Source of the DNA: a virus
Lineage: Duplodnaviria; Caudoviricetes
Reading direction: 5' to 3' (one strand)
Virus record (IMG/VR): IMGVR_UViG_3300032247_000928
Location: 15,904-79,903 of that record
DNA length: 64,000 nucleotides
A model generated the notes under the pieces. The model had not been told where the DNA came from. It saw only the letters and a list, made by a program, of their open reading frames with translations, and searched no databases. How positions within the stretch are numbered: the stretch's first letter is position 1; every line of letters starts with the position of its first letter. Below are positions 15,701 to 59,014 of the stretch, one piece after another. A program made the translations under genes and the position numbers.

Positions 15701-16912
15701 AATTAATTGCATTCTTGCAAAATCTGCAACTGCATCTGTACTTGTATATGAGTTAAAAGCAGATCTTTTTGTTTCTGATATCTGTGTAATAGTTATTTTG
15801 TTTATGGTCGTTGTTTTACTTATTTCTCCCGTGCTTGTAAACTTTGGCATTTCAGACCATCTTGTTTTTGTCCAAGCAGATCCAGTCCAATACAAAACTA
15901 GCACTCCTGTGTTAAAACTTTCTGAGTTTGATGGAATAGTAATACTCTGGCTTCCATCAACAGTAATAGTTGTTCCATTTAAAATAACATTAAATGTAGG
16001 AATTGTAACTAAAGTATTAAATTTAATTACAATTTTGTTTGTTAAAATAGAAGACTCATATATTCCAGTAATACTTTTTGTGTTCTGTCCAGATACAAAA
16101 TACTTGTAGGGAGATATATCTGTTGGTGGTGCGCTCTTTATTCCTGGGACTGGTGGGGAGGCAAAGAAAAAGGAAGGCATATGAAGAATTGAACTTACTG
16201 GAGAATAATTTGGAGCAGTATATCCATTAATTATTGAAGATAAAATTTTTCTATGGTTGGTAGGAAATGAACAGTTTGTGTTTCCAGTAGGGACATATGA
16301 TTCTCCAGGTCTAAAATAAGTGAATGGGCTATCTGTTGGCCAAAGAGATCCGTATCTATAGTCTGTGATTGATGTTTTATATGCTTGTGGAACTGTAAAA
16401 TATATTGTTGGATTAATATCTGTACCGCTCAAAGAATTAACATTGATTGTATAAACAAAAGAAGAAATGCCAGATATTACTGAAGCTGGTGAACCAATAT
16501 AGGTGACAACTTTTGTCCAACCTAGAGAACTTGCCTCTTCCTGTTTTGATCCATACTCACCACTTGAACCTTTAGCATATGCTGTAATCATAACTGGTAT
16601 TGCATTATCTGTTTTTATATAAGTAATTATCTTGCATGCATCTGCACTATCTGCAGTTACATTATATGATACAGAACCTTTTCCAGCAGACATAGTAAAC
16701 TTCTTTGTAGTAAAGTTTTTCTTTTGTACATCATTAGAATCAGAAACGGTACTGGAAGAAGTAGAAAAAGATGTAGAAAGAGAAGTTCCAGTACTGGCAG
16801 TAGTAATATAAGGTTGATTAAATAAGTTATGATTCCATTCTGCAGAAACAACAGGAACCATGCCTATTGAATCAGAATTTGAGAATACTGAAGAACTTAA
16901 ATTTGTTAACAT
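12779..16912 (-). CDS. large tail-tip / baseplate hub protein
   Basis: 1377 aa two genes after the tape measure; ends GNPLIQVGDVVTL...YVVVSVSHTF, typical of hub proteins. Confidence 0.7.
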   Translation of the reverse strand: MLTNLSSSVFSNSDSIGMVPVVSAEWNHNLFNQPYITTASTGTSLSTSFSTSSSTVSDSNDVQKKNFTTKKFTMSAGKGSVSYNVTADSADACKIITYIKTDNAIPVMITAYAKGSSGEYGSKQEEASSLGWTKVVTYIGSPASVISGISSFVYTINVNSLSGTDINPTIYFTVPQAYKTSITDYRYGSLWPTDSPFTYFRPGESYVPTGNTNCSFPTNHRKILSSIINGYTAPNYSPVSSILHMPSFFFASPPVPGIKSAPPTDISPYKYFVSGQNTKSITGIYESSILTNKIVIKFNTLVTIPTFNVILNGTTITVDGSQSITIPSNSESFNTGVLVLYWTGSAWTKTRWSEMPKFTSTGEISKTTTINKITITQISETKRSAFNSYTSTDAVADFARMQLIEVSPRLEIDLSEFVQSLSIDKSIDSQNSALPISSINSDACSITLSSIPLYNNNQPVNIFSSQSDQASTVLANILRKNIKLYVNFNVFQYSQLSTSSTTAASSYIPGGIFYSDTWDENDIDTVSIQSFDISRYLQATPVPDYVANLKSVFEIVTNILDTAGFTDYDYDSLYNICNSKAMPMDVSYFYCNSKDSTILDTLNKIFVAYQIGAYIDEYGIMKFLSLHNILSSSGSSLNLADKDIKQGGFSVSNKAKPGKISLRYQVPKVKQSPSLQNVTNPTIKNSPSFIYTTSNDVVWQQQSIDSVGFNYLKNLMALDSNIMSINVNDLQNIFHTFNRDTNGYAFIENEIVSLLYKEYTIAKTDGTSVTVSIKNDLELQSEINNFIKKYSVGLKTSDGTEKQDYDVIVTPTGNITNVQRGLFGTAPSAHSRITTLASKGLSEKLLNLDYTISTSSGFTSIIDDYDNDTSLPSISKIQVNSANDSRVLIYPTNQVDNGYQTYSVKFDMPDQDVSAAGLFFNMTSATSSVGTYMVELVRFSLVDPKTTNLYSPAKYKYLLFIFGPGTSTNYWADVTGQCNSIINNFPKIIKKNEATTPTTYSYVTDNPFSLKVIHYLSDGTDGENATTETPKRILSVFLNNTEITGWNEQKTDDYDATTNPGGSAWKTMDVNLKTGMRQKPFFTDNISSGKKFGFYATTNPGIVPGIHPAFNYKVENPILAPASLREIHATQKSLKERSVSYFYQDREFLNGLVQGQPLYGNSITYIMQTTPEISGINYYDIQYTTPAAVSVDVLPVEYMWYYFPGNEQGDQRNYQKKLVDEYSLSYSTPINTGFRAKMAIANNSSNLVFLHKEADDLDQFTINLNLWTHEIVAPSDPEILEAVIDPSNISEVVQLDSEWIQSKQAAQRMLKVISMGIEGFSKTVSLNIFGNPLIQVGDVVTLTYALNGISSQRYVVVSVSHTFDNGLSTKLTLNRIY

Positions 16913-20400: not shown

Positions 20401-22931
20401 TTACCAACGGCAAGATTTAATTCATCTGAAATTGCAACAACTCTATTATCAAATGTCGTAAATAAACGTTTTAATCCATTTTCTGTTCTTGCAACCATCT
20501 CTGTAATATTTTTTTCTGCAGCCTGAGAAATTGTTTTTGAATAAGCAATTAACTCTTCTCCAGTCATTTGGCTTGATCCACCAAAGTGACCCGAATGGTA
20601 TGTTCCTGGAACATTAACTTGTTTGCCTCTTGAAATTATTGGTTCTGAAATAGAAGGCATATTTCCAGGAACACCTATAGTTGCACCAGACATACCACGT
20701 CCTGCAATTAAATTATTGACACCTCTATAACTAAAATTACTTCTAGCAGCATTTCCTGGTGCCCCAGTTAGATCTATTTTTGGCTCATATTTTCCAGTTT
20801 TTAATAATGCATTAACAGCTTCTGGATTCTCATTAACAGTTTTTGCATCAATTATTGCTTCTCCATTAGAAGCCATGATAGGAATTGAATCTGAGGTTCC
20901 AGTTCCTTTACCTCTGATAATTCCATTATTTGCAAACTTTTGTCTTTTATTTGGTGGAACCATCATTCCAGGATTTAAACTTGCAAACCTTGATGCTGCA
21001 CTGGTTGCTTCTTGATATACTGCTATAAGCCTTTGAAGGGCTTCTGCTTCTACTGTAAATTGTTGAGTAAGAGTTGCATGTGCTTGATTAAGTGAGTGAG
21101 CTGCTGCTGCAGCATCTATTTGCTCACTTGTCATATATTGTGTTTGTTCTCCTAAGTTTTGTGACTGCCCCGTTAATTTTTGATATCCAGTACGTAATGT
21201 TAAGAAAAGCTTAATAACATTTGCAACACCATTTGCAAGTAAGCCGAATGTCATAAGCAGAATAGGGCCAAGTCCACCAACAGCAACAATCATTAAAGTA
21301 ATTGCTTTTTTAGTTCCATCGGAAAGATGTGAAAATCCATTTGCAATTTTTGATACAACATTTACAACTGGAGTTATTGCTTTTAAGAATGCTTCACCTA
21401 CTGGAACAATTGCAAACTTAAGATCTTCAACAGCTTTTTTGAATTTATTCATTGGAGAATCAGCAGTAATATTTAATTCTTTATTTGATAAATATGCTAA
21501 ATCTTGAATTGATGTTCCTGCCAACTTAAGTACTTCTGATGCCTGTGTTCCATCTTTTGTAACATTTTGAAATAATGTTGATAAACGGGCAAATTGAAAT
21601 TTACCAAACATTGTTTCAATTGCTTGTGCTCTTTGAAGGGGAGCAAGCGTATCAAGTGCCATTGCAAAATCAATAACAGTTTTCTTTAAATCACCCTTGT
21701 CTTTTTGTACAATCCCTAAAATATCAACCCCAAGCCCTTTAAGCATTGTTCTTGCTTTAGTACTTGGATTAATCAAAGATGCAAGACCAGACTTAAGTGC
21801 GTTAGCACCTTCTGCTGCATTAACACCTCCTTGTTTCATTGCTGTAAGGAAGAATGCTAAGTCTTTTACATTACCACCAAGTTGTTTAATAATTGGGGCA
21901 ACTTTTGGAATTGCAGTTGTTACGTCATCAAGAGTTAAAACTGTTTGGTTTTCTACTGCGTTAAGAAAATCAATAGTACTAGTTAGATCAGCACTTGAAA
22001 TACCAAAAGCATTTTGTAGTGAAATTGTTGTTTGTAATGCTTTTTGATTATCAATTTGACCAAGAATAGAAAGTCTTGTTGCTTCTGTTGTTTGACGCTG
22101 TAAATCTAAACCTTTAAATCCTGCTGCTGCAGCATCTGCTGCAAGACCTACAGTATCTGATACTGCAACACCATATTTTGTAAATTCTTTTCCAAGTTCT
22201 TTAATATTAGCAAGCGCTTGTTGTGTTTCTGCTTGTGGGGTAAAAATATCTCCATAAACTTTTTTAAATTTAAGTGCTTGAGCTTCCATTTGCATAAATG
22301 TTTTAGATGCAGCAGAACCAACTGCAATAAGAGGAAGAGTAAATCCAACCATAAGCTGACGTCCAGCCCACTGTGTATTTTTACCAAAATTTAAAAGGTT
22401 TGTAGAACCTTGTTTCATCAACTGATTAAATAATGCTTGTTTTTGTGCAGCAATCTGAGTTTGTGTTGCAAAACTACTCATATCTAATTGATTTGGAGTA
22501 ATAGCAATAGCCTTCATAGCTCCAGATGCATCACGACCCATTTTAATATACTGAGTTTGTAGCTTTTTTACACGGTCTTCTGCTACCTTACCAATTGTGT
22601 CATATTCTGATTTAAATAATTGACCAAATGTTTTTGTTGATGCCCCCGCATAGCGGAAGTATTCTCGCATTGAAAACTTATTCTTTTCAAGAGAACTTGT
22701 AAATGACTCTGATGTTGTTTTTACAGTTCGGAACTCTGCAGAGAAAGCTCCAATAGAACTTATACTATTAAGAAAATTTCTCTGCAGATCCCTTTGAGCA
22801 AGTGCTGCTGCTTCGCTAGATTTAGCGACTGAAGTATGAAATAACGATATCTGACGTTGTAAGGACTTAAGTTGGTCTAATGCTGCAGACGTATTAATAT
22901 TTACGCCAATATTAGCATTTACATCAGACAT
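17418..22931 (-). CDS. tape measure protein
   Basis: 1837 aa Ala/helical protein; core with GVNAAEGANALKSGL; hydrophobic mid-segments; position after the chaperones. Confidence 0.92.
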   Translation of the reverse strand: MSDVNANIGVNINTSAALDQLKSLQRQISLFHTSVAKSSEAAALAQRDLQRNFLNSISSIGAFSAEFRTVKTTSESFTSSLEKNKFSMREYFRYAGASTKTFGQLFKSEYDTIGKVAEDRVKKLQTQYIKMGRDASGAMKAIAITPNQLDMSSFATQTQIAAQKQALFNQLMKQGSTNLLNFGKNTQWAGRQLMVGFTLPLIAVGSAASKTFMQMEAQALKFKKVYGDIFTPQAETQQALANIKELGKEFTKYGVAVSDTVGLAADAAAAGFKGLDLQRQTTEATRLSILGQIDNQKALQTTISLQNAFGISSADLTSTIDFLNAVENQTVLTLDDVTTAIPKVAPIIKQLGGNVKDLAFFLTAMKQGGVNAAEGANALKSGLASLINPSTKARTMLKGLGVDILGIVQKDKGDLKKTVIDFAMALDTLAPLQRAQAIETMFGKFQFARLSTLFQNVTKDGTQASEVLKLAGTSIQDLAYLSNKELNITADSPMNKFKKAVEDLKFAIVPVGEAFLKAITPVVNVVSKIANGFSHLSDGTKKAITLMIVAVGGLGPILLMTFGLLANGVANVIKLFLTLRTGYQKLTGQSQNLGEQTQYMTSEQIDAAAAAHSLNQAHATLTQQFTVEAEALQRLIAVYQEATSAASRFASLNPGMMVPPNKRQKFANNGIIRGKGTGTSDSIPIMASNGEAIIDAKTVNENPEAVNALLKTGKYEPKIDLTGAPGNAARSNFSYRGVNNLIAGRGMSGATIGVPGNMPSISEPIISRGKQVNVPGTYHSGHFGGSSQMTGEELIAYSKTISQAAEKNITEMVARTENGLKRLFTTFDNRVVAISDELNLAVGKSGSGQTAPIALAKRDLITRGSVAHPELVDQLKQAGVPIEQIKTTVAKVTTEIENGFTKLGDVAVVTADDLDKIIKEAYIAVSKTDKNVETAYAKMQRVTAVADVEARGGKQNRISLGKSYKDKRSTYGIGMQEVANGSVPYSTTGAFQINDAMAAEAQKTKEFLAITYKQLSDEVKIKLSLIKDDVKLFTKTLMEEAKLAGIAGFEVGDQAIKGIAEGTDSHSDSKKAIVQGKNVINGFVNAIKGGEKNATVAGEQLGNAGITGIQNATQSGRRVAIRAQGAPLSQVSAQLVSAPQTEEEIKKFSNSLKETSPKLLKMNNALQGGSFALMGLSGVAQMFGGTLGNISSVIFNVSGALFALQTITQLLTQAKLLEVVATRANTVAQAMGATAFKTLFVGVASWGARLLTAGRFALNFLGPWGKLAAIAITIGVSLFAYNKAQQAAKEKTEAFSNALVTTTDQLKSLGDYFGTQPAISALEKKTGFAPGTAAQISAADKFRESDSFKKYGTPTVKALKNLNDTQATQVLNAKMFELLGAGFSKDQIQIIIQAIQQEAKRTDLKIDFGNINLDKLPADILKDFEKESKKFKTGAWIQTVLGTKQERDKAMVPFKSEAGIINKYLNGISSALVSGQINGKQFNTMFDSLVVSLQKMPDQSNAIILLDTALKAMAPDVARAAIGVKDFKDKLLLLRAASVGLGDQISKEMIKALSYSGVDPILNDIKGRTQADITAMIEKQTKELVAAQKAALSAAGGTTPGGADVLSKQSKLAIANMQKELDLLKTKRDVINGTNDDLKRQYDYQQKLMQLQSDATQAKISGNYIGAAIIGAQKSFETSQFNKTTDAQVLDDKIKTLENEISAIQATNKVTAAQAALAKAKGKATGGLIQGPGTGISDSIMARFAGGGLPQLTVSNGEYIVQAKAVQNYGVGFMDAINNQKVSAINSNTSSTSGDTVYNVNMTVNGGNANASDIADQVIRRLKVETSKINKSNMVRM

Positions 22932-52995: not shown

Positions 52996-53201
52996 TGGTA
53001 CTAATTGAACACAATCTTCGTTTCGTTACAGAATTAGACGAAACAAATCCAACCGCTATTCGTTTGCTCAATCTTGAAAAAGAAATGCAAATTGAAATGC
53101 TTGAAGGCTTGCTAAAAGAAGTTCTTGCACCTATGATTCAGCCTGCGTTAGATGAAGTTAATGAAGGCAATTCATGGGCAGTTCTAAAGGTGGCAGACTA
53201 A
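52995..53201 (+). CDS. hypothetical protein
   Basis: Coupled ORF, 68 aa. Confidence 0.7.
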   Translation: MVLIEHNLRFVTELDETNPTAIRLLNLEKEMQIEMLEGLLKEVLAPMIQPALDEVNEGNSWAVLKVAD

Positions 53202-53377
53202 TGATGACACGCAAGGACTATGTAAAAGTTTCAGAAATTCTTGCAGGTTATCATCAAGCCATGATTGACAATTTCTGGTGGGAAGATTTGGTAAATGATT
53301 TCGCTCTAATGTTTGAGCAAGACAATCCAAATTTTAGTCGTCAAAAATTTACAGAAGCCTGCGAAGCGGGAATGTAA
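53201..53377 (+). CDS. conserved small phage protein
   Basis: MMTRKDY...DNPNFSRQKFTEAC; coupled. Confidence 0.7.
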   Translation: MMTRKDYVKVSEILAGYHQAMIDNFWWEDLVNDFALMFEQDNPNFSRQKFTEACEAGM

Positions 53378-53382
53378 AAATA

Positions 53383-53411
53383 AGATCCTGAGCATGATTT
53401 AAAACTGCTTA
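53383..53411 (+). ncRNA. H-type pseudoknot element (copy 1)
   Basis: AGATC-C-TGAGCA-T-GATTT-AAAAC-TGCTTA, 5 nt after a stop codon. Confidence 0.65.
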
Positions 53412-53436
53412 AAGTTTCAACTAAATTTCCGGGGCG

Positions 53437-53457
53437 TTTTCCACAGGTTTATCCACA
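53437..53457. promoter_or_regulatory. DnaA-box pair
   Basis: TTTTCCACA-ggt-TTATCCACA. Confidence 0.7.
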
Positions 53458-53511
53458 AGCTTTACGTTGTGAGATTTATCACATGCGATCTTGCCCGTTT
53501 AAGATTTGTAT

Positions 53512-53534
53512 TTGTCACCCTGAGATGATAGGAT
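53512..53534 (+). promoter_or_regulatory. RecA-NDp-like promoter
   Basis: TTGTCACCC-8-TAGGAT. Confidence 0.6.
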
Positions 53535-53565
53535 ATTTATATCAACTTAAAGAAAGAAGGCTCAC

Positions 53566-53715
53566 ATGACCGCTTATGTATGTATGCAGTGTAATGAAAA
53601 TGCAGTAGATGTAACTGAACTCTATTGCTTCCGTTGCTACCTTGACCGAGAGGTAGAGGCGATGATAGAATATGACCTTATTGACCAACTATTCGTAACG
53701 AAAGAGGCTAACTAA
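53566..53715 (+). CDS. 49-aa zinc-finger mini-protein
   Basis: CMQC...CFRC; SD GAAGG; not in the track. Confidence 0.7.
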   Translation: MTAYVCMQCNENAVDVTELYCFRCYLDREVEAMIEYDLIDQLFVTKEAN

Positions 53716-53930
53716 TGGAATACCTATACTCAGTATCTTGCACCTATGACGGAGATAAGTCTCCACACTGGGTTGGTCGCTATGATAATGCGATTGACGC
53801 AGTTAATTCTTGGAATAAGTTTATTGACTGGGGCATGGCATTAGAATATGCTACAGTTAATTTCTCAGAGCCTAATGGCAAAATGCACACAAAGATATTC
53901 TATCGTAATGGAAATGTAGGGGGTAAGTAA
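53715..53930 (+). CDS. hypothetical protein
   Basis: Coupled, 71 aa. Confidence 0.7.
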   Translation: MEYLYSVSCTYDGDKSPHWVGRYDNAIDAVNSWNKFIDWGMALEYATVNFSEPNGKMHTKIFYRNGNVGGK

Positions 53931-54028
53931 TGTCAAAAGTAATGTTATGGTTCAACGATGAAGTTAATGAAGCGTTAGACTACGCTAATGAAATGGAACT
54001 AATGGGATTAGATAAGGAGAATAAATAA
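53930..54028 (+). CDS. 32-aa acidic peptide
   Basis: TAATG-coupled at both ends. Confidence 0.5.
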   Translation: MSKVMLWFNDEVNEALDYANEMELMGLDKENK

Positions 54029-54363
54029 TGGGTTCAGTTACAGCGTTGGGAATTAAAGAAATGGTACTTGACTTGGAGACTCAGATTCTCTATCACCTTA
54101 AGGCTAATCACTATCCACCTGTACCCGCAGAAATGGTAACTGCGTGTATTGATGCGATTGATGCCTTCTATGATGAGGACTATGACCGCATGATTGATAT
54201 GCCAAAGGTTGGTGACTTTCAGATTACCTATCGTGGCTCAACACAAGCACCTGCACACGCTATCGTAGACCAACACCACCTTGATGTATTTATTGATTCT
54301 GTTGATGACTGGCAAGATGGGTCAGATGACTTTCCACTCTCACTAGAATATGATGAGGAGTAA
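54028..54363 (+). CDS. hypothetical protein
   Basis: ILYHLKANHYPPVP...AIVDQHHLDVF; SD AAGGAG. Confidence 0.75.
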   Translation: MGSVTALGIKEMVLDLETQILYHLKANHYPPVPAEMVTACIDAIDAFYDEDYDRMIDMPKVGDFQITYRGSTQAPAHAIVDQHHLDVFIDSVDDWQDGSDDFPLSLEYDEE

Positions 54364-54366
54364 TAA

Positions 54367-54606
54367 ATGCCTGCTACAATAAACAACATGGAACTCGTAT
54401 GGGCAGATAAGTTAACACCAGACTCATTGATGGTTGATGATCTGATAAAAATTGATGGAGATTTAATTGAAATCATTAATATCAGTTCTGATGGCACGGG
54501 CGATAACTATTTTATTGACTGTGTTGATGTGTATGGTGAGCCAGATACAATTACACTTGCGTATGATAAATATGTTGATTTATATGTGTATGTAGACAAA
54601 GACTAA
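54367..54606 (+). CDS. small OB/SH3-like hypothetical protein
   Basis: 79 aa; SD GAGGAG. Confidence 0.65.
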   Translation: MPATINNMELVWADKLTPDSLMVDDLIKIDGDLIEIINISSDGTGDNYFIDCVDVYGEPDTITLAYDKYVDLYVYVDKD

Positions 54607-54686
54607 TAAAAATCCCGGGGCAAAATGTCCGATTTACCCTTTTACGTTAAGTTGCATTTTTGCCTTAACTTTGCTAATATTATTAT

Positions 54687-54827
54687 ATGAAAAAGACACC
54701 TGAAGAGTTACGTAAACTTATGGAGTTACGTCGTTCTAATGCAGCGTCTGCGATCCCAAATAAAAAAAAGTACAATAGGAAAAAATGTCAGTCCCTATTG
54801 CTACAATTAAAGAAAGAAAGCGAGTAA
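54687..54827 (+). CDS. 46-aa basic peptide (leaderless)
   Basis: MKKTPEELRKLMELRRSNAASAIPNKKKYNRKK...; 6 nt after TTGCAT-17-TAATAT. Confidence 0.6.
   Translation: MKKTPEELRKLMELRRSNAASAIPNKKKYNRKKCQSLLLQLKKESE
54785..54807 (+). promoter_or_regulatory. RecA-NDp-like promoter
   Basis: ATGTCAGTC-8-TACAAT. Confidence 0.65.
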
Positions 54828-54833
54828 CCCACC

Positions 54834-55556
54834 ATGTCAAAATTACTTCGTTCAAAAGATAGGAAAGTTGCTAATGCAGTTACACCAAATGGAAAGCAAG
54901 CAAGTATCGCCAACACATTCGGACTACCAGCAGGCAAGGCTTATTCATGTCCTGGAGCGACTAGCGTATGCGAGACTGTTTGCTACGCTGGCAAGCTTGA
55001 AAAGATATTCCCAACCGTAAAAGTTAACTTACTTCATAACTGGGAACTATTGAAAGACGCAGACTATGAAACTATGGTCTCACTTCTTAATGAAATGATA
55101 ATGGACTTCAAGAAAGACTGTATCAAGAAAGACGCACCTAAACTATTCCGCATTCACTGGGACGGCGACTTCTTTAATGATACATATGCATATGCATGGA
55201 AGCAAATTATCATGAACCATAGTGATATTCAATTCTGGGTCTATACTAGAGTTAAGTCTGCAGCCCTAATGCTTAATGGCATTGCTAATCTTTCTTTATA
55301 CTATTCTACAGATAGCGAGAATAAAGAAACTGGTATTGAACTTAAAACGGATCATGGAATATCCCTTGCATACCTTGCCAAAAATTTTCAATTAGGACAA
55401 GCAGACATGAAGGAACTTACAGGCAAGCCTGGCGCTAAGTGCCCTGAGAATAAAAAGGCCATTCCGCTTATCTCAAGCAATGGGTCTGCCTGCGCTAGTT
55501 GTAAGTTGTGTATTTATCAGAAATCTGATATAGTATTTAGCGCAACCAAAAAGTAA
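54834..55556 (+). CDS. gp88-like protein (radical-SAM-like Cys motif)
   Basis: FGLPAGKAYSCPGATSVCETVCYA...FRIHWDGDFF...WVYTR; C-terminal C..CxxCxxC. Confidence 0.6.
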   Translation: MSKLLRSKDRKVANAVTPNGKQASIANTFGLPAGKAYSCPGATSVCETVCYAGKLEKIFPTVKVNLLHNWELLKDADYETMVSLLNEMIMDFKKDCIKKDAPKLFRIHWDGDFFNDTYAYAWKQIIMNHSDIQFWVYTRVKSAALMLNGIANLSLYYSTDSENKETGIELKTDHGISLAYLAKNFQLGQADMKELTGKPGAKCPENKKAIPLISSNGSACASCKLCIYQKSDIVFSATKK

Positions 55557-55565
55557 GGGAAACCT

Positions 55566-55634
55566 ATGCTAACAATAACTATACTAACTATCATAGTCGG
55601 AATTGTCCTATTCGCAGGGCTAGGGCATGAGTGA
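55566..55634 (+). CDS. 22-aa single-TM peptide
   Basis: MLTITILTIIVGIVLFAGLGHE; SD AAGGGA. Confidence 0.45.
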   Translation: MLTITILTIIVGIVLFAGLGHE

Positions 55635-55747
55635 CGCAAATCACACAGAAAGGGTCTCAATATATGAGATTTTCTAGGCTAGGAATTGTATTTCCGAGAT
55701 TTTTCGGATATACTAGAAATATCAACAACTACAGAAAAGGAAACAAA

Positions 55748-55909
55748 ATGACAGTAGCAACAGCAACTTACAAGGTCGGCGACCTCTTTACAACACAGAA
55801 GTCAAAGGTCACAGGTCAAATCTTGGAAATCAAGCCAACAGATAAGAACACAGTTCGTGTGAAGTTAGATGTAAATGGCAACACACGCTGGACAACTTGG
55901 AAGGCGTAA
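55748..55909 (+). CDS. small KOW/SH3-like protein
   Basis: YKVGDLFTT..VTGQILEI; promoter TTGTAT-17-TATACT at 55686; start moved. Confidence 0.7.
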   Translation: MTVATATYKVGDLFTTQKSKVTGQILEIKPTDKNTVRVKLDVNGNTRWTTWKA

Positions 55910-55958
55910 GCCTTTCATAGTCGCCAATGTACAGCGACTCTAAATAAGTGGCAGGAAC

Positions 55959-55986
55959 TATCCTGAGCAAGATACAAAAAGGCTCA
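55959..55986 (+). ncRNA. H-type pseudoknot element (copy 2)
   Basis: TATC-C-TGAGCA-A-GATA-CAAAAA-GGCTCA. Confidence 0.55.
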
Positions 55987-55991
55987 CTTTA

Positions 55992-56014
55992 ATGTCAGAC
56001 CAACCCCCTATAAT
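55992..56014 (+). promoter_or_regulatory. RecA-NDp-like promoter
   Basis: ATGTCAGAC-8-TATAAT. Confidence 0.7.
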
Positions 56015-56046
56015 AGAAATATAACCCACAAAAGAAAAGGAACACC

Positions 56047-56463
56047 ATGTCAAGAGCAATAACAGTAAAGGTGGCAACACCAAAAGTAATCAAGGCTTTG
56101 GAAACAAAGTTAGAAACAATCAAGAAAGACAAAGAGAACGAAGCAAGCAACGAAGCAAAGTTCCAAAAACTTAATGAAAAGTGGAAAAAGGAAATTGTTG
56201 CTTTTGCAATCGCAAATATCAAGAAGGCTGAAAATGTACGCAGTAACTATCGTTCTTGGAACAATCAGTTAAACCTTGACTTTGACATTACAGTTTCAGA
56301 ACTGGATATGCCAAAGCAACCTGAGCGTGATTTCACAACTATGCACGACCACACATATCGTGAAATGGTAGAGGAAATTAACAACGCACTTTCTATTCTC
56401 CGCATGACAGATGAGGAAACAGTTAATGCTTCTACAATGAAGCAAATTGCTCGTTATCTCTAA
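56047..56463 (+). CDS. hypothetical protein
   Basis: 138 aa; SD AAAGGA. Confidence 0.8.
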   Translation: MSRAITVKVATPKVIKALETKLETIKKDKENEASNEAKFQKLNEKWKKEIVAFAIANIKKAENVRSNYRSWNNQLNLDFDITVSELDMPKQPERDFTTMHDHTYREMVEEINNALSILRMTDEETVNASTMKQIARYL

Positions 56464-56569
56464 ATGAGGTTGGGTGGGGTGTAAAAGCCCCACTCCAATT
56501 CGCCAGGCTGATTAGGGCGATCACAGAAATACTATAGAGCAAGGTTACTGCCGACCTAAAGACGCAGAC

Positions 56570-56596
56570 CACCTGAGTAAGTGCCAAAACTGCTCA
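56570..56596 (+). ncRNA. H-type pseudoknot element (copy 3)
   Basis: CAC-C-TGAGTA-A-GTG-CCAAAAC-TGCTCA. Confidence 0.55.
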
Positions 56597-56705
56597 CCAA
56601 TATTTATTCAAGTGACTGCATAAATATGCGGGGGCCGGAAAAATGTGATGAGCATCACCTATATTAAGTCTCACTATTTAAGATTCATGGGTTTACGGTT
56701 GACAG

Positions 56706-56728
56706 TTGTCGGTACCCGCTGCTAGACT
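56706..56728 (+). promoter_or_regulatory. RecA-NDp-like promoter
   Basis: TTGTCGGTA-8-TAGACT. Confidence 0.72.
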
Positions 56729-56756
56729 TATAATAACAACAACAGAAAGAGGCCCC

Positions 56757-57197
56757 ATGGACCAAACAGTAAACTATGAAACAGAAATATTTCTTCGTGA
56801 TTCATTGGCAAAGTCATCTCTCAAGATAAGTGAACTTGAAGTTGACCTTGAAACAGTAAAAAAATTCAAAGAAGATTTAATCATCCAAAGCAACACATTG
56901 CACCGTAAGCATACTAACCTGCAGGATTCTCTTAAAGAGTGGACACGTGCAGAGTTAGCAAATGAAGATATCACAATTGAGCAAGCACAAGCGCTTGCAG
57001 AAATTGGTGAATTCACACTAACAAAATCATATGACGTAACAGTTGTAGTAGAGCACTCATTCACCGTTGAACTTGAAGCAAGCGATGACATTGATGACGT
57101 CCTTGGTACCCTTGATTTCAGTGTTGACTCTTATCACACAACAATTGATAACGTTGACTATTCAATTGTTGAAACTAACTATGATGAAACAAATTAA
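56757..57197 (+). CDS. coiled-coil hypothetical protein
   Basis: MDQTVNY...; SD AGAGG; start moved. Confidence 0.75.
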   Translation: MDQTVNYETEIFLRDSLAKSSLKISELEVDLETVKKFKEDLIIQSNTLHRKHTNLQDSLKEWTRAELANEDITIEQAQALAEIGEFTLTKSYDVTVVVEHSFTVELEASDDIDDVLGTLDFSVDSYHTTIDNVDYSIVETNYDETN

Positions 57198-57220
57198 TAT
57201 TTCATAGGGGGCTATGAAAC

Positions 57221-57283
57221 AAAGACCTGTCACATGTCTTTAAACTGGATGAGGGCCCTGAGCACGGCCACGTAAACTGCTCA
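57221..57283 (+). ncRNA. tandem pseudoknot elements (copies 4-5)
   Basis: AAAGAC-C-TGTCACA-T-GTCTTT-AAAC-TGGATG (weak P2), then GGCC-C-TGAGCA-C-GGCC-ACGTAAAC-TGCTCA-CTTTTT. Confidence 0.6.
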
Positions 57284-57404
57284 CTTTTTATTGCAAAAAT
57301 TTCCGGGCCCCAAAACTTGATCTTGTCAAGCGACACGCCATGTGATTTACGACACGTTTAAGAAATGTCCGAATTGCCCCATGTCTGATTAGCCTGATTT
57401 GCAT

Positions 57405-57427
57405 ATGTCAGTCTGTCTTGCTATACT
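57405..57427 (+). promoter_or_regulatory. RecA-NDp-like promoter
   Basis: ATGTCAGTC-8-TATACT; also TTGCAT-17-TATACT. Confidence 0.7.
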
Positions 57428-57457
57428 TAAATTTCAACAACAAAAAGGAGAAAACTC

Positions 57458-58480
57458 ATGGCACATGACCTAGAAACACAAAACGGCAAGGCATCTTTTG
57501 CATCTTTCCGTGAACCTGCATGGCATGGATTGGGTACTGTATTCACAGAAGAAAAAACAACCGCAGAAATGCTAGAGGCTGCAAACCTCAATGGTTGGAA
57601 TGTTCGTCTTGAAGATATGCCTATCCCTGCACACTTAACTACAGACAAGGCGTACCAATATGTATTGCGTACTAATCCTACAGAATCAACTCAGACCGAT
57701 ATTCTTGGTGTAGTTGGTGAGCGTTATCATGTAATGCAGAATGAAGATTTATTTTCATTCGGTGACAATATTCTTGACGGCGGGGGACGATGGGAAACCG
57801 CTGGTTCAATCAAGGGTGGGCGTGTAGTATTTGGCGCACTTGCTCTTGAGCGTGAAACTGTACTAGACCCTAATGGTGTTGCAGATAAGGTAAAAACTTA
57901 TTTGCTTATCAACACATCACACGATGGTTCAATCGCAATTCAAGCAAGCATCACACCTGTTCGTGTTGTGTGCGCTAATACTCTTAATCTTGCTCTTGGT
58001 GGCGTAGGTCGTAAGAAGAACAAGGGAATCAAGCAATCTTTCAAGATTCGCCACACACAGACAGCAAGCGGTAAGGTAGAGGTTGCTCGCCAGACTCTTG
58101 GTCTTGCTAATGCTTACATGGACGAATTTGACCTCATGGCTAAGGCTATGATTGAGAAAGAAGTCAATGCTAAGTCTTTCAATGATATTCTTCTCGCTGC
58201 TTATCCTAAGCCAGAAAAAGATGCTAAGGGTGCAATCAAGAAGTGGGAAAATAAAATTGACATGGTAAATGATATTTACACAGGTGAATTTAACGGCATG
58301 ATTGCTGGTAATGCTTGGGGTGCGTTTAATGCACTTACTGAACGCCTTGATTGGTACCGCACAGCAAGAGGTGGTTCTAACGAATCTATCCTTGCAAGCG
58401 CATCAGGATTTGACCCTGCAATTAACGCAGAGAAGAATCGTTTGCTTAAAGTTGTGCAGAATGTAATGTCTCTCGCATAA
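57458..58480 (+). CDS. DUF932 / TIGR03299 phage-plasmid family protein
   Basis: REPAWHGLG, LGVVGERYHVMQN, ETAGSIKGGRVVF, SHDGS, TPVRVVCANTL, IRHT. Confidence 0.88.
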   Translation: MAHDLETQNGKASFASFREPAWHGLGTVFTEEKTTAEMLEAANLNGWNVRLEDMPIPAHLTTDKAYQYVLRTNPTESTQTDILGVVGERYHVMQNEDLFSFGDNILDGGGRWETAGSIKGGRVVFGALALERETVLDPNGVADKVKTYLLINTSHDGSIAIQASITPVRVVCANTLNLALGGVGRKKNKGIKQSFKIRHTQTASGKVEVARQTLGLANAYMDEFDLMAKAMIEKEVNAKSFNDILLAAYPKPEKDAKGAIKKWENKIDMVNDIYTGEFNGMIAGNAWGAFNALTERLDWYRTARGGSNESILASASGFDPAINAEKNRLLKVVQNVMSLA

Positions 58481-58485
58481 TAAAA

Positions 58486-58514
58486 AATTCCTAGGCATGA
58501 ATTAAAACTACCTG
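58486..58514 (+). ncRNA. H-type pseudoknot element (copy 6), 3 nt before the tRNA
   Basis: AATTC-C-TAGGCA-T-GAATT-AAAAC-TACCTG; compensatory changes in both stems. Confidence 0.6.
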
Positions 58515-58517
58515 CAA

Positions 58518-58591
58518 GATCTCATAGCTCAATTGGTTAGAGCGCTACCCTGTCACGGTAGAGGCTACGGGTTCAAGTCCCGTTGGGGTCG
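58518..58591 (+). tRNA. trnD: tRNA-Asp (GUC), CCA not encoded
   Basis: Acceptor GATCTCA/TGGGGTC, D arm GCTC/GAGC, anticodon arm CTACC-CTGTCAC-GGTAG, T arm ACGGG-TTCAAGT-CCCGT, discriminator G. Confidence 0.92.
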
Positions 58592-58706
58592 CAGCGTAAA
58601 TGGGGCCCCGGAAAATCGGACATATAGGACATTAACTAATTAGATTAATATAAAAACTTTATTAAGAAGACTTGCTTTTTTCCCTGGAAGCGTGTAAAAT
58701 AAATGT

Positions 58707-58865
58707 ATGACCACAAAAACAAATGAAAAAACCATCGCCCAACTCGTAGAGGATATCTATGAGGACCACTTCTCTCATATTGATTTCATGGATAATATGG
58801 GGGGAGATTGTGATTGTGCAATTCACTCTACCCTGGAAACAATTCTACAGTATTGGAGTAAGTAA
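58707..58865 (+). CDS. 52-aa hypothetical protein (leaderless)
   Basis: 6 nt after TTGCTT-17-TAAAAT; CDCAIH motif. Confidence 0.6.
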   Translation: MTTKTNEKTIAQLVEDIYEDHFSHIDFMDNMGGDCDCAIHSTLETILQYWSK

Positions 58866-59014
58866 TGCTAGGATATGAAAAATCTGATTTAGATATGATG
58901 ATTGCTAGTGTAAACATTGCTTCTAAGCAGTTGGGCAATTCAGGTATTGCTAAGGGTCTAGAAGAAGTATCTAGTTTCTTACAAGGTCTATGGGCAGAAG
59001 GGTACTTTGACTAA
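58865..59014 (+). CDS. 49-aa hypothetical protein
   Basis: MLGYEKSDLD...LQGLWAEGYFD; coupled at both ends. Confidence 0.65.
   Translation: MLGYEKSDLDMMIASVNIASKQLGNSGIAKGLEEVSSFLQGLWAEGYFD

Follow-up and report, generated by a model that had tools for sequence, protein, structure and literature searches.

A covarying RNA pseudoknot behind the early genes of a Caudoviricetes phage and in the phages of other hosts

What is the role of a short structured element that is repeated behind one small gene after another in the early region of a phage, once directly ahead of a transfer RNA (tRNA) gene? The question is raised by a stretch of 64,000 nucleotides (nt), here called the window, which covers positions 15,904 to 79,903 of the IMG/VR record IMGVR_UViG_3300032247_000928 (Duplodnaviria; Caudoviricetes) and thus the final 64 kb of a 79.9-kb phage contig. 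Between 53383 and 58514, an H-type pseudoknot of about 30 nt occurs in six copies, five of them clear and one diverged, all on the plus strand (Table 1). A first-pass annotation of this DNA had placed six copies there, and reading 53000-59000 confirmed each of them. Its central description, a covarying H-type pseudoknot at gene 3' ends on the sense strand, is borne out as well and is far more general than the window. The element is almost certainly an RNA pseudoknot, and the motif is a new, widespread and well-supported RNA family.

Architecture and covariation of the pseudoknot

The element is composed of a first stem (P1) of 3-6 base pairs (bp) with free sequence, closed by a C-G pair, a first loop (L1) CU, a second stem (P2) GAGCA/UGCUC of 5 bp, one unconserved junction base between P2 and the 3' strand of P1, and, as last loop (L3), 4-9 nt that are rich in A and end in AAAC. 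About 16 positions are close to invariant in unrelated phages, while the junction base, counted over 141 copies, is U in 76, A in 49, C in 14 and G in 2. An A-rich L3 is typical of RNA minor-groove triples. Copies were collected from IMG/VR with a pattern consisting of CCTGAGCA, a gap of 4-16 nt and then AAACTGCTCA, the matches not being selected for P1; at least 120 loci were found, and the gap was 7 nt in 90 of the 137 matches listed.

Both helices covary strongly across more than 400 copies from other phages. Regarding P1, said in the first-pass annotation to vary freely and yet to pair, at least two contiguous pairs beyond the C-G closing pair are present in 116 of the 121 distinct listed matches, compared with at most 6 in slid controls, and 55 different 4-bp stems occur. 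When the inner four nt of P2 were left unconstrained, 141 of 178 candidates formed all four pairs, whereas a shifted control did so in 7 of 178, the compensated forms including AAGC/GCUU, GGGU/GCCC, GGCC/GGCC, GAAC/GUUC, GGAC/GUCC and AGAC/GUCU. In a gap-free alignment of 112 copies, 92.9% of the cells are paired and double changes are seen in nine of 11 pairs, with a covariation score of 0.477, relative to 0.142 for shuffles and no more than 0.093 for slid partners; a second alignment, built from the DUF932 loci described below, gave similar pair counts, far above its controls. The helix that had been read as a P2 of 6 nt therefore stands, but its effective length is 5 bp, as the would-be partner of the U in CU varies between A, G, C and U, so that this base is assigned to L1. 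The energies of the single helices range from -0.8 to -7.3 kcal/mol with unremarkable z-scores, and nested folding energies are uninformative for pseudoknots.

A covariance model of the family, R1, was trained only on copies from other phages. Applied to the 64 kb, it recovers copy 4 at E 0.024 and the other five copies at E values between 1e-12 and 1e-5, all on the plus strand, and those five score 23-44 bits and fit the new family as defined above. The two conserved halves taken singly do not exceed their frequency in shuffled sequence; the composite motif is restricted to these places across the whole genome by pattern scan. The sole further R1 match below E 0.1 in the window (22447-22482) has a 10-nt loop and lies antisense within a 1837-amino-acid open reading frame (ORF) of the minus strand, and is probably due to chance.

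The copy ahead of the tRNA can be followed through evolution, as the DUF932 gene that precedes it was compared in 80 close relatives of 89-96% identity. The order of gene, knot and tRNA-Asp is kept in 80 of 80 orthologues, the knot beginning 5-25 nt past the stop codon. Among 58 distinct versions of this site, P1 changes freely and P2 occurs in four fully compensated variants: GAGCA/UGCUC, AAGCA/UGCUU, AGGCA/UGCCU and AGACA/UGUCU. By this comparison, the AGGCA/UACCU of copy 6 appears as a slightly damaged version of AGGCA/UGCCU, which is intact in close relatives. The compensatory change claimed earlier for this copy holds in part, since two pairs are truly compensated and the other differences are one wobble and one C.A mismatch. 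Its position directly before the tRNA was correctly described, with 3 nt in between in the window; over 54 distinct junctions of the relatives, the distance from the last P2 pair to tRNA position +1 is 3-9 nt, with a mode of 4.

The tandem pair that had been pointed out at 57221-57283 is likewise present, formed by the adjacent copies 4 and 5, of which copy 4 is the diverged subtype. Relatives retain this subtype in tandem with copy 5, with a P2 of 4 bp in the shifted register URYC/GRYR, and covariation is seen there in two P2 pairs, one being U-A, C-G or U.G and the next G.U, A-U or G-C. The loop CUGUCAC of copy 4 (57227-57233) is identical to the anticodon loop of tRNA-Asp (58549-58555). Anticodon mimicry was considered and rejected, because relatives carry CUGUCAA, CUGCCAC or CUACCGC, and the identity is probably a coincidence.

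As for the strand, G.U pairs in P2 outnumber A.C mismatches by 31 to 3, which indicates that the folding strand is the sense strand, and in the 80 DUF932 loci all of the 265 R1 matches lie on the sense strand. Both observations bear on two suggestions of the first-pass annotation, that the knots might be STAXI elements or a structured signal in single-stranded DNA. The latter would act as a priming, recombination or cassette-boundary site, and the repeats do stand at cassette boundaries, near DUF932 and, in Methanobrevibacter contigs, near ArdC-like genes, which are types found on mobile elements. However, the sense strand alone tolerates G.U, and the copies are strictly biased to it, so that a DNA signal is disfavoured. 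STAXI consists of tandem pseudoknot units, two or more and in most cases three, with frequent UUCG tetraloops, described from Enterobacteriales (PMC2864571) and lying near Ssb, topoisomerase, antirestriction or integrase genes. The knots of the window resemble it in being simple pseudoknots that recur near mobile-element genes, but they are dispersed behind different genes with one adjacent pair only, arrays of two or three units are missing, their loops are CUGAGCAN rather than UUCG, and the units differ in sequence. Their neighbours include DUF932 and, elsewhere, an ArdC-like gene, most being unrelated small genes, and the identified hosts include no enterobacteria. The STAXI model RF01728 gives no match to E 10 in the 6-kb region of the knots or in the whole 79.9-kb genome. 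Membership in STAXI is thus largely refuted, and a role in single-stranded DNA is most improbable.

Distribution among phages and comparison with known families

No curated family covers the motif. The Rfam scan and covariance model that had been proposed as checks gave no Rfam match at the knots and strong covariation: Rfam 15 at gathering scores returned only the tRNA over the whole window, and permissive scans matched no knot to E 10 in the 6-kb region or to E 1 in seven other phage loci, which places the motif outside every curated family. A literature search on the core sequence and on phage pseudoknot motifs found nothing specific. The motif may be among the roughly 10,000 candidate viral RNAs of a catalogue from 2023 (PMC10690425).

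Several identities were considered and rejected. PreQ1-I (RF00522), pistol and other small ribozymes have no Rfam match here, and the middle loop of the knot is a single unconserved base. The GP20-a and GP20-b motifs, suggested by two phages in which a GP20 scaffold gene lies downstream of the knot, have no Rfam match there either. The likeness of the AAAC end to a CRISPR-repeat tag, and of the core to that of the hammerhead (CUGANGA), is set aside on the variable P1, the missing second stem and the lack of an Rfam ribozyme match. In its form, the motif is similar to the gene 32 leader knot of T-even phages and to preQ1-I, which are likewise compact H-type knots whose first loop is short and whose last loop is rich in A. 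The knot of gene 32 also precedes an unstructured leader but is specific to that gene, unlike the motif described here; preQ1-I has a longer middle loop of 4-6 nt with a conserved, ligand-pairing C and stands before queuosine genes, whereas a longer middle loop is found here only in the copy 4 subtype.

The pseudoknot occurs in hundreds of other phages. R1 identifies 157 copies in 100 of the listed viral loci. A megablast search of the 6-kb region against cultured phages gave no match, and the cultured carriers came from blastn with the short motif. Among them, Synechococcus phage S-EIVl has eight copies, while the T7-like Paracoccus phage ParMal1, Mycobacterium phage Labelle, the T4-like cyanophage S-RIM4, an Acutalibacteraceae gut phage and Vibrio phage D456 have one copy apiece where counted; copies in Lactobacillus phage phiEF-1.1 and Staphylococcus phage SA13 are verified by the model too. 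The hosts of these carriers span cyanobacteria, actinobacteria, Firmicutes, alphaproteobacteria and Vibrio. By blastn only, the motif is also seen in phages of Microcystis, Nostoc, Moorella, Arthrobacter, Bacillus and Geobacillus, and in about 80 temperate phages of S. aureus. Phages of Escherichia, Salmonella, Klebsiella and Pseudomonas are not among the organisms listed by blastn, a soft observation, as the search was seeded with two particular P1 sequences.

In species-representative genomes, the pattern scan found at least 119 contigs; among those listed, about 75 have a proper P1 and about 40 lack it, the latter looking like chance matches. The contigs with a proper P1 include Saccharibacteria, Anaerolineae, Omnitrophota, isolates of Lactobacillaceae and others, as well as two Methanobrevibacter assemblies. 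In both of these (loci L148, 376-402, and L182, 1892-1918), a run of seven T and an ArdC-like antirestriction gene come after the knot, with a type I restriction-modification system adjoining. It is possible that these loci are an archaeal mobile element or provirus carrying the motif, with the host assigned by binning only.

The motif is easily recognised, shows abundant covariation and has cultivable carriers (S-EIVl, ParMal1, Labelle and SA13), so its function is directly testable. In annotation, it is also useful for marking where genes end, and on which strand, in the genomes of uncultured phages.

Gene context and the function of the knot

In the non-redundant set of 141 copies, 129 lie clear of long ORFs and on the strand of their neighbours, and nearly all copies lie between co-directional genes, orientation being otherwise uninformative. 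The knot is transcribed within the sense-strand message and is cis-acting, in the gaps between co-directional genes. P1 never begins less than 4 nt past the stop codon; 5 nt is the commonest spacing and 12 nt the median, and the minimum equals the reach of a terminating ribosome. Conversely, the distance from the knot to the next start codon is broad (19-300 nt), and where the intergenic region measures 100 nt or more, the knot is near the upstream stop 49 times and near the downstream start nine times. A U-tract directly follows 34 of 141 copies compared with 10 of 141 control windows, or 19 copies compared with one control under the stricter definition of at least six T in 7 nt, and the 3' flank of the knot is strongly G-poor. 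In the window, the spacing of 5 nt is seen in copies 1 and 6 only, the other four beginning 23 to 106 nt past the stop, and the terminator-like U-tract CUUUUUAUU stands directly 3' of copy 5, being present at part of the orthologous sites too. A simple terminator scan of the 6-kb region found no canonical plus-strand terminators, the knots themselves not being called.

The stop-codon anchoring, the minimum spacing, the U-tracts and the order of gene, knot and tRNA favour the reading that the knot is a compact cap, which fixes where the mRNA of the upstream cistron ends and shields that end; the probability of this reading is put at roughly 0.4. Among the functional options of the first-pass annotation, 3'-end protection, processing or termination plausibly suits the context best. 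As proposed, the knot would stand as near to the stop codon as the terminating ribosome permits, at least 4 and mostly 5 nt away, a spacing that lets it remain folded while the gene is translated. The 3' end could then be generated by three routes. In the first, P2 would serve as the terminator hairpin for the U-tract behind the knot; in the second, RNase P would cut at a tRNA 3-9 nt downstream, so that the DUF932 mRNA would end 3 nt past copy 6; in the third, an endonuclease would cut the G-poor single-stranded flank. The residual tail would be too short for 3'-to-5' exonucleases to engage, and these enzymes would be blocked by the knot, which is assumed to be stabilised by L3 adenines in the minor groove of P1 and by L1 in the major groove of P2. 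The outcome would be a stable message with a minimal 3' untranslated region.

This arrangement can be compared with known 3' ends. In the mammalian MALAT1, and in MEN-beta, RNase P cuts at a tRNA-like element behind a triple helix, which then caps the 3' end. For DUF932, knot and tRNA-Asp, a cut by RNase P would leave the message end 3-9 nt past a compact knot with an A-rich strand, and the logic that may be shared is that of a structure-capped 3' end made without a terminator. However, MALAT1 is eukaryotic and has a U.A-U triple helix, a genomically encoded A-tract and a tRNA-like element, whereas the present case is prokaryotic, with an H-type knot and a true tRNA. Another such setting is that of the PeSL cassettes of T4-type phages and of intercistronic stabiliser hairpins of the REP type, which are also repeated structures at the borders of small cassettes, paired with promoters, and which presumably terminate or stabilise the message ahead of them and ease the shuffling of modules. 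These are plain hairpins of one lineage, while here a pseudoknot with the same core is found in unrelated phage families. In the window, sigma-70-like promoter sites are present behind copies 3 and 5 by promoter scan. Should the knot prove to be such a cap, prokaryotes would have an equivalent of the mRNA ends that a structure protects and that need no terminator, and engineered operons could use it as a small, transferable element to stabilise or insulate their cistrons.

Several observations weigh against the cap. Each helix is thermodynamically weak, so that any barrier would depend on the inferred tertiary contacts. The sequence of P2, L1 and L3 is nearly constant in very different phages, a conservation that exceeds the needs of a roadblock and hints at a specific partner. 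Many genomes have a single copy, as is not expected of a general gene-end signal, and nearly all copies are internal to co-directional arrays, so full termination is not a general function. Finally, in SA13 and phiEF-1.1 the knot stands before scaffold and capsid genes, in phiEF-1.1 after a terminator, where a role for the downstream RNA fits better.

Such a downstream role would be that of a block to 5'-to-3' or 5'-end-dependent decay entering from the upstream cistron or, in a variant, of a shield that keeps the following leader, tRNA or non-coding RNA from folding with upstream sequence, the downstream gene being expressed more strongly than the genes ahead of it. This role fits the two siphoviruses. 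In SA13 (locus L246, 2497-2590) and phiEF-1.1 (locus L247, 2498-2595), another conserved hairpin, CGUGG...CCACG with an A run, comes between the knot and the genes of the scaffold (GP20) and the major capsid protein, about 60 nt behind the knot, an arrangement that looks like a composite leader distinct from the GP20-a and GP20-b of Rfam; in phiEF-1.1 the knot is downstream of an ordinary terminator. The role also agrees with the approximately 40% of copies that lie 19-40 nt ahead of a start codon, with an A-rich L3 on P1, which is the geometry by which frameshift-stimulating knots resist unwinding from the 5' side, and with the hosts listed by blastn, which have RNase J, the phages of Escherichia, Salmonella, Klebsiella and Pseudomonas not being among those listed. 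Nevertheless, long intergenic regions anchor the knot to the upstream stop rather than to the downstream start, by 49 to 9, the promoter-like sites of the window fall between the knot and the next gene, a tRNA should need no such shielding, and the motif is present in Vibrio phages. Protection of the downstream RNA is an unlikely function.

The vicinity of a tRNA gene permits a different use of tRNA-processing enzymes from the one proposed for the cap. P2 and P1 stacked on each other (9-12 bp) might mimic an acceptor arm, by which host enzymes would cut the polycistronic RNA, RNase P on the 5' side of the first G of P2 or RNase Z one base beyond the end of P2. The motif is found in phages of very different hosts and in archaea-binned contigs, which suggests a universally conserved partner, and the U before the P2-opening G-C pair, together with the A that follows the last P2 pair in 79% of copies, resembles the cleavage-site consensus of tRNAs. 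In addition, the motif is often beside tRNA genes or other structured RNA: in the Acutalibacteraceae phage NatCom_11578 (locus L125, 2995-3184), it abuts a 158-nt DUF2800 RNA (Rfam RF02960, 144 bits), in a place where small minus-strand ORFs annotated across both the knot and that RNA look spurious. On the other hand, no equivalent of the T-loop is conserved in the alignment and CCA follows just 14 of 141 copies (about 10%), by which a tRNA-like structure of the turnip yellow mosaic virus type is also rejected, and the knot copies are not recognised as tRNAs by ARAGORN or by the tRNA model of Rfam. A helix mimic would not require a conserved P2 sequence, the L1 of just 2 nt would occupy the groove of P2, and cleavage in L1 would expose the upstream message. 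Punctuation of this kind seems improbable, even if reading of the knot by tRNA-processing enzymes, or by the ribosome, would amount to a general phage means of punctuating long transcripts.

As regards the ribosome, a knot at its mRNA entrance might modulate read-through, frameshifting, recycling or re-initiation at the stop codon, or might block post-termination scanning. The stop-to-knot distances of 4-10 nt equal those of known recoding stimulators, and the fold class is that of the luteovirus frameshift knots, which in beet western yellows virus are H-type knots of about 28-30 nt with a very short L1 starting with C and an A-rich last loop of 5-7 nt. The present knots share with these their proportions, a single unconserved junction base, an A-rich last loop along stem 1, and a place few nt downstream of the codon where the ribosome halts. 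They differ in having no slippery heptamer and no overlapping frame, in a stem 2 of 5 bp with conserved sequence, in not being bound to one gene, and in belonging to DNA phages of prokaryotes. When -1 frameshifting and read-through were examined, an in-frame XXXYYYZ heptamer was found at 0 of 70 upstream sites, the median distance to the next in-frame stop was 7.5 codons, and stops in tandem were common; with no slippery sites and no open extensions, a recoding signal was rejected. Moreover, many copies are 20-100 nt past the stop, or behind a terminator, so that a signal to the terminating ribosome is very unlikely.

The near-constant core that tells against a simple cap would be accounted for if L1, P2 and L3 formed a binding surface or an active site, the knot being a regulatory operator for a protein, metabolite or other RNA, or a self-processing site. 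This is suggested by the roughly 16 near-invariant positions kept in unrelated phages despite weak helices. By a published rule of thumb, biochemically demanding RNAs combine a pseudoknot with a number of highly conserved bases and a spread over several phyla (PMC5737381), and the motif agrees with it. But the junction base is unconserved, leaving no obvious pocket, no riboswitch or ribozyme of Rfam matches, and the motif is just about 30 nt long. A co-occurring protein partner was searched for and no consistent family was seen, the upstream genes being diverse, with DUF932 upstream in 14 of 84 through a single lineage. A recognition element, or a small catalytic or ligand-binding RNA, is therefore decidedly unlikely.

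A broader proposal would join several of these possibilities. The knots may tentatively be regarded as an uncatalogued, self-contained RNA class of bacterial and possibly archaeal viruses, whose core either docks on a universal host machine or is itself catalytic; RNase P, RNase Z, the CCA-adding enzyme and the mRNA entrance of the ribosome are, with the same reserve, the candidate machines. Small, highly conserved pseudoknots found in the phages of many bacterial phyla are rare, and the known ones proved to be riboswitches, ribozymes or recoding signals. If true, the motif would be a general punctuation mark of the transcripts of prokaryotic viruses.

The copies of the window and their surroundings

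The minus strand of the window carries the structural genes (portal, protease, capsid protein and tail fibres) and a ribonucleotide reductase, whereas the plus strand, from about 47.6 kb on, is a block of small early-type genes, whose cassettes include a GP88-family gene and the DUF932 gene (Table 1). The portal protein is nearest to those of large Streptomyces phages, with 44-47% identity, and the knot-bearing relatives are IMG/VR metagenome contigs.

Table 1. Pseudoknot copies and neighbouring features of the window, with scores of covariance model R1 where it applies
Feature	Position	Strand	Structure or identity	Score	Surroundings
Copy 1	53383-53411	+	AGAUC / C / UGAGCA / U / GAUUU / AAAAC / UGCUUA; P1 AGAUC/GAUUU, L1 CU, P2 GAGCA/UGCUU with one G.U	R1 44.2 bits, E 1.4e-12	begins 5 nt past TAA of ORF 53174-53377
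GP88-family gene	54834-55556				early cassette
Plain hairpin	55922-55942		AGUCGC...GCGACU		between stop codon and copy 2
Copy 2	55959-55986	+	P1 UAUC/GAUA, P2 UGAGC/GCUCA (5 bp)	R1 23.4 bits, E 1.1e-5	49 nt after stop of 53-amino-acid ORF 55748-55909, 60 nt ahead of ATG 56047
Plain hairpin	56472-56497		GGGUGGGG...CCCCACUCC		between stop codon and copy 3
Copy 3	56570-56596	+	P1 CAC/GUG, P2 GAGUA/UGCUC with one U.G	R1 32.1 bits, E 1.4e-8	106 nt past stop of ORF 56047-56463; sigma-70-like promoter downstream at 56699
Copy 4 (diverged subtype)	57221-57251	+	P1 AAAGAC/GUCUUU, 9-nt loop, 4-bp P2 UGUC/GAUG, register shifted	R1 13.2 bits, E 0.024	begins 23 nt past stop of ORF 56757-57197; tandem with copy 5
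Copy 5	57254-57283	+	P1 GGCC/GGCC, P2 GAGCA/UGCUC, L3 8 nt	R1 24.9 bits, E 3.3e-6	
DUF932 gene	57458-58480	+	Pfam PF06067	E 1.4e-45	copy 6 at its 3' end
Copy 6	58486-58514	+	P1 AAUUC/GAAUU, P2 AGGCA/UACCU	R1 31.3 bits, E 2.7e-8	begins 5 nt past TAA of DUF932 gene, ends 3 nt ahead of tRNA-Asp
tRNA-Asp (GUC)	58518-58592	+	ARAGORN	Rfam tRNA 68.7 bits	
Further R1 match	22447-22482	+	10-nt loop	R1 16.5 bits, E 0.002	antisense within minus-strand ORF
Repeat (A/T)ATGTCCGA(T/A)TT	51407-, 51502+, 52515+, 54624+, 57364+, 58613-	both	six occurrences		early-gene intergenic regions
G+C-rich blocks	53428-53440, 54612-54622, 56630-56642, 57299-57312, 58600-58612		CCGGGGC, CCCGGGGC, GGGGGCCGG, CCGGGCCCC, GGGGCCCCGG		3' of pseudoknots or tRNA

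Copy 2 sits within a short C/A-rich leader, and the orthologues of the ORF upstream of it have a pseudoknot at the equivalent place. Plain hairpins stand between the stop codon and the knot at copies 2 and 3, meaning that some gene ends bear a hairpin plus a knot.

Two other kinds of repeat were observed in the early region. The first, (A/T)ATGTCCGA(T/A)TT, has six occurrences, none with more than one mismatch, exclusively in early-gene intergenic regions, and perhaps serves a phage regulator as operator or promoter. The second consists of G+C-rich, part-palindromic blocks with A or T runs alongside, and similar blocks are found in relatives behind their knots.

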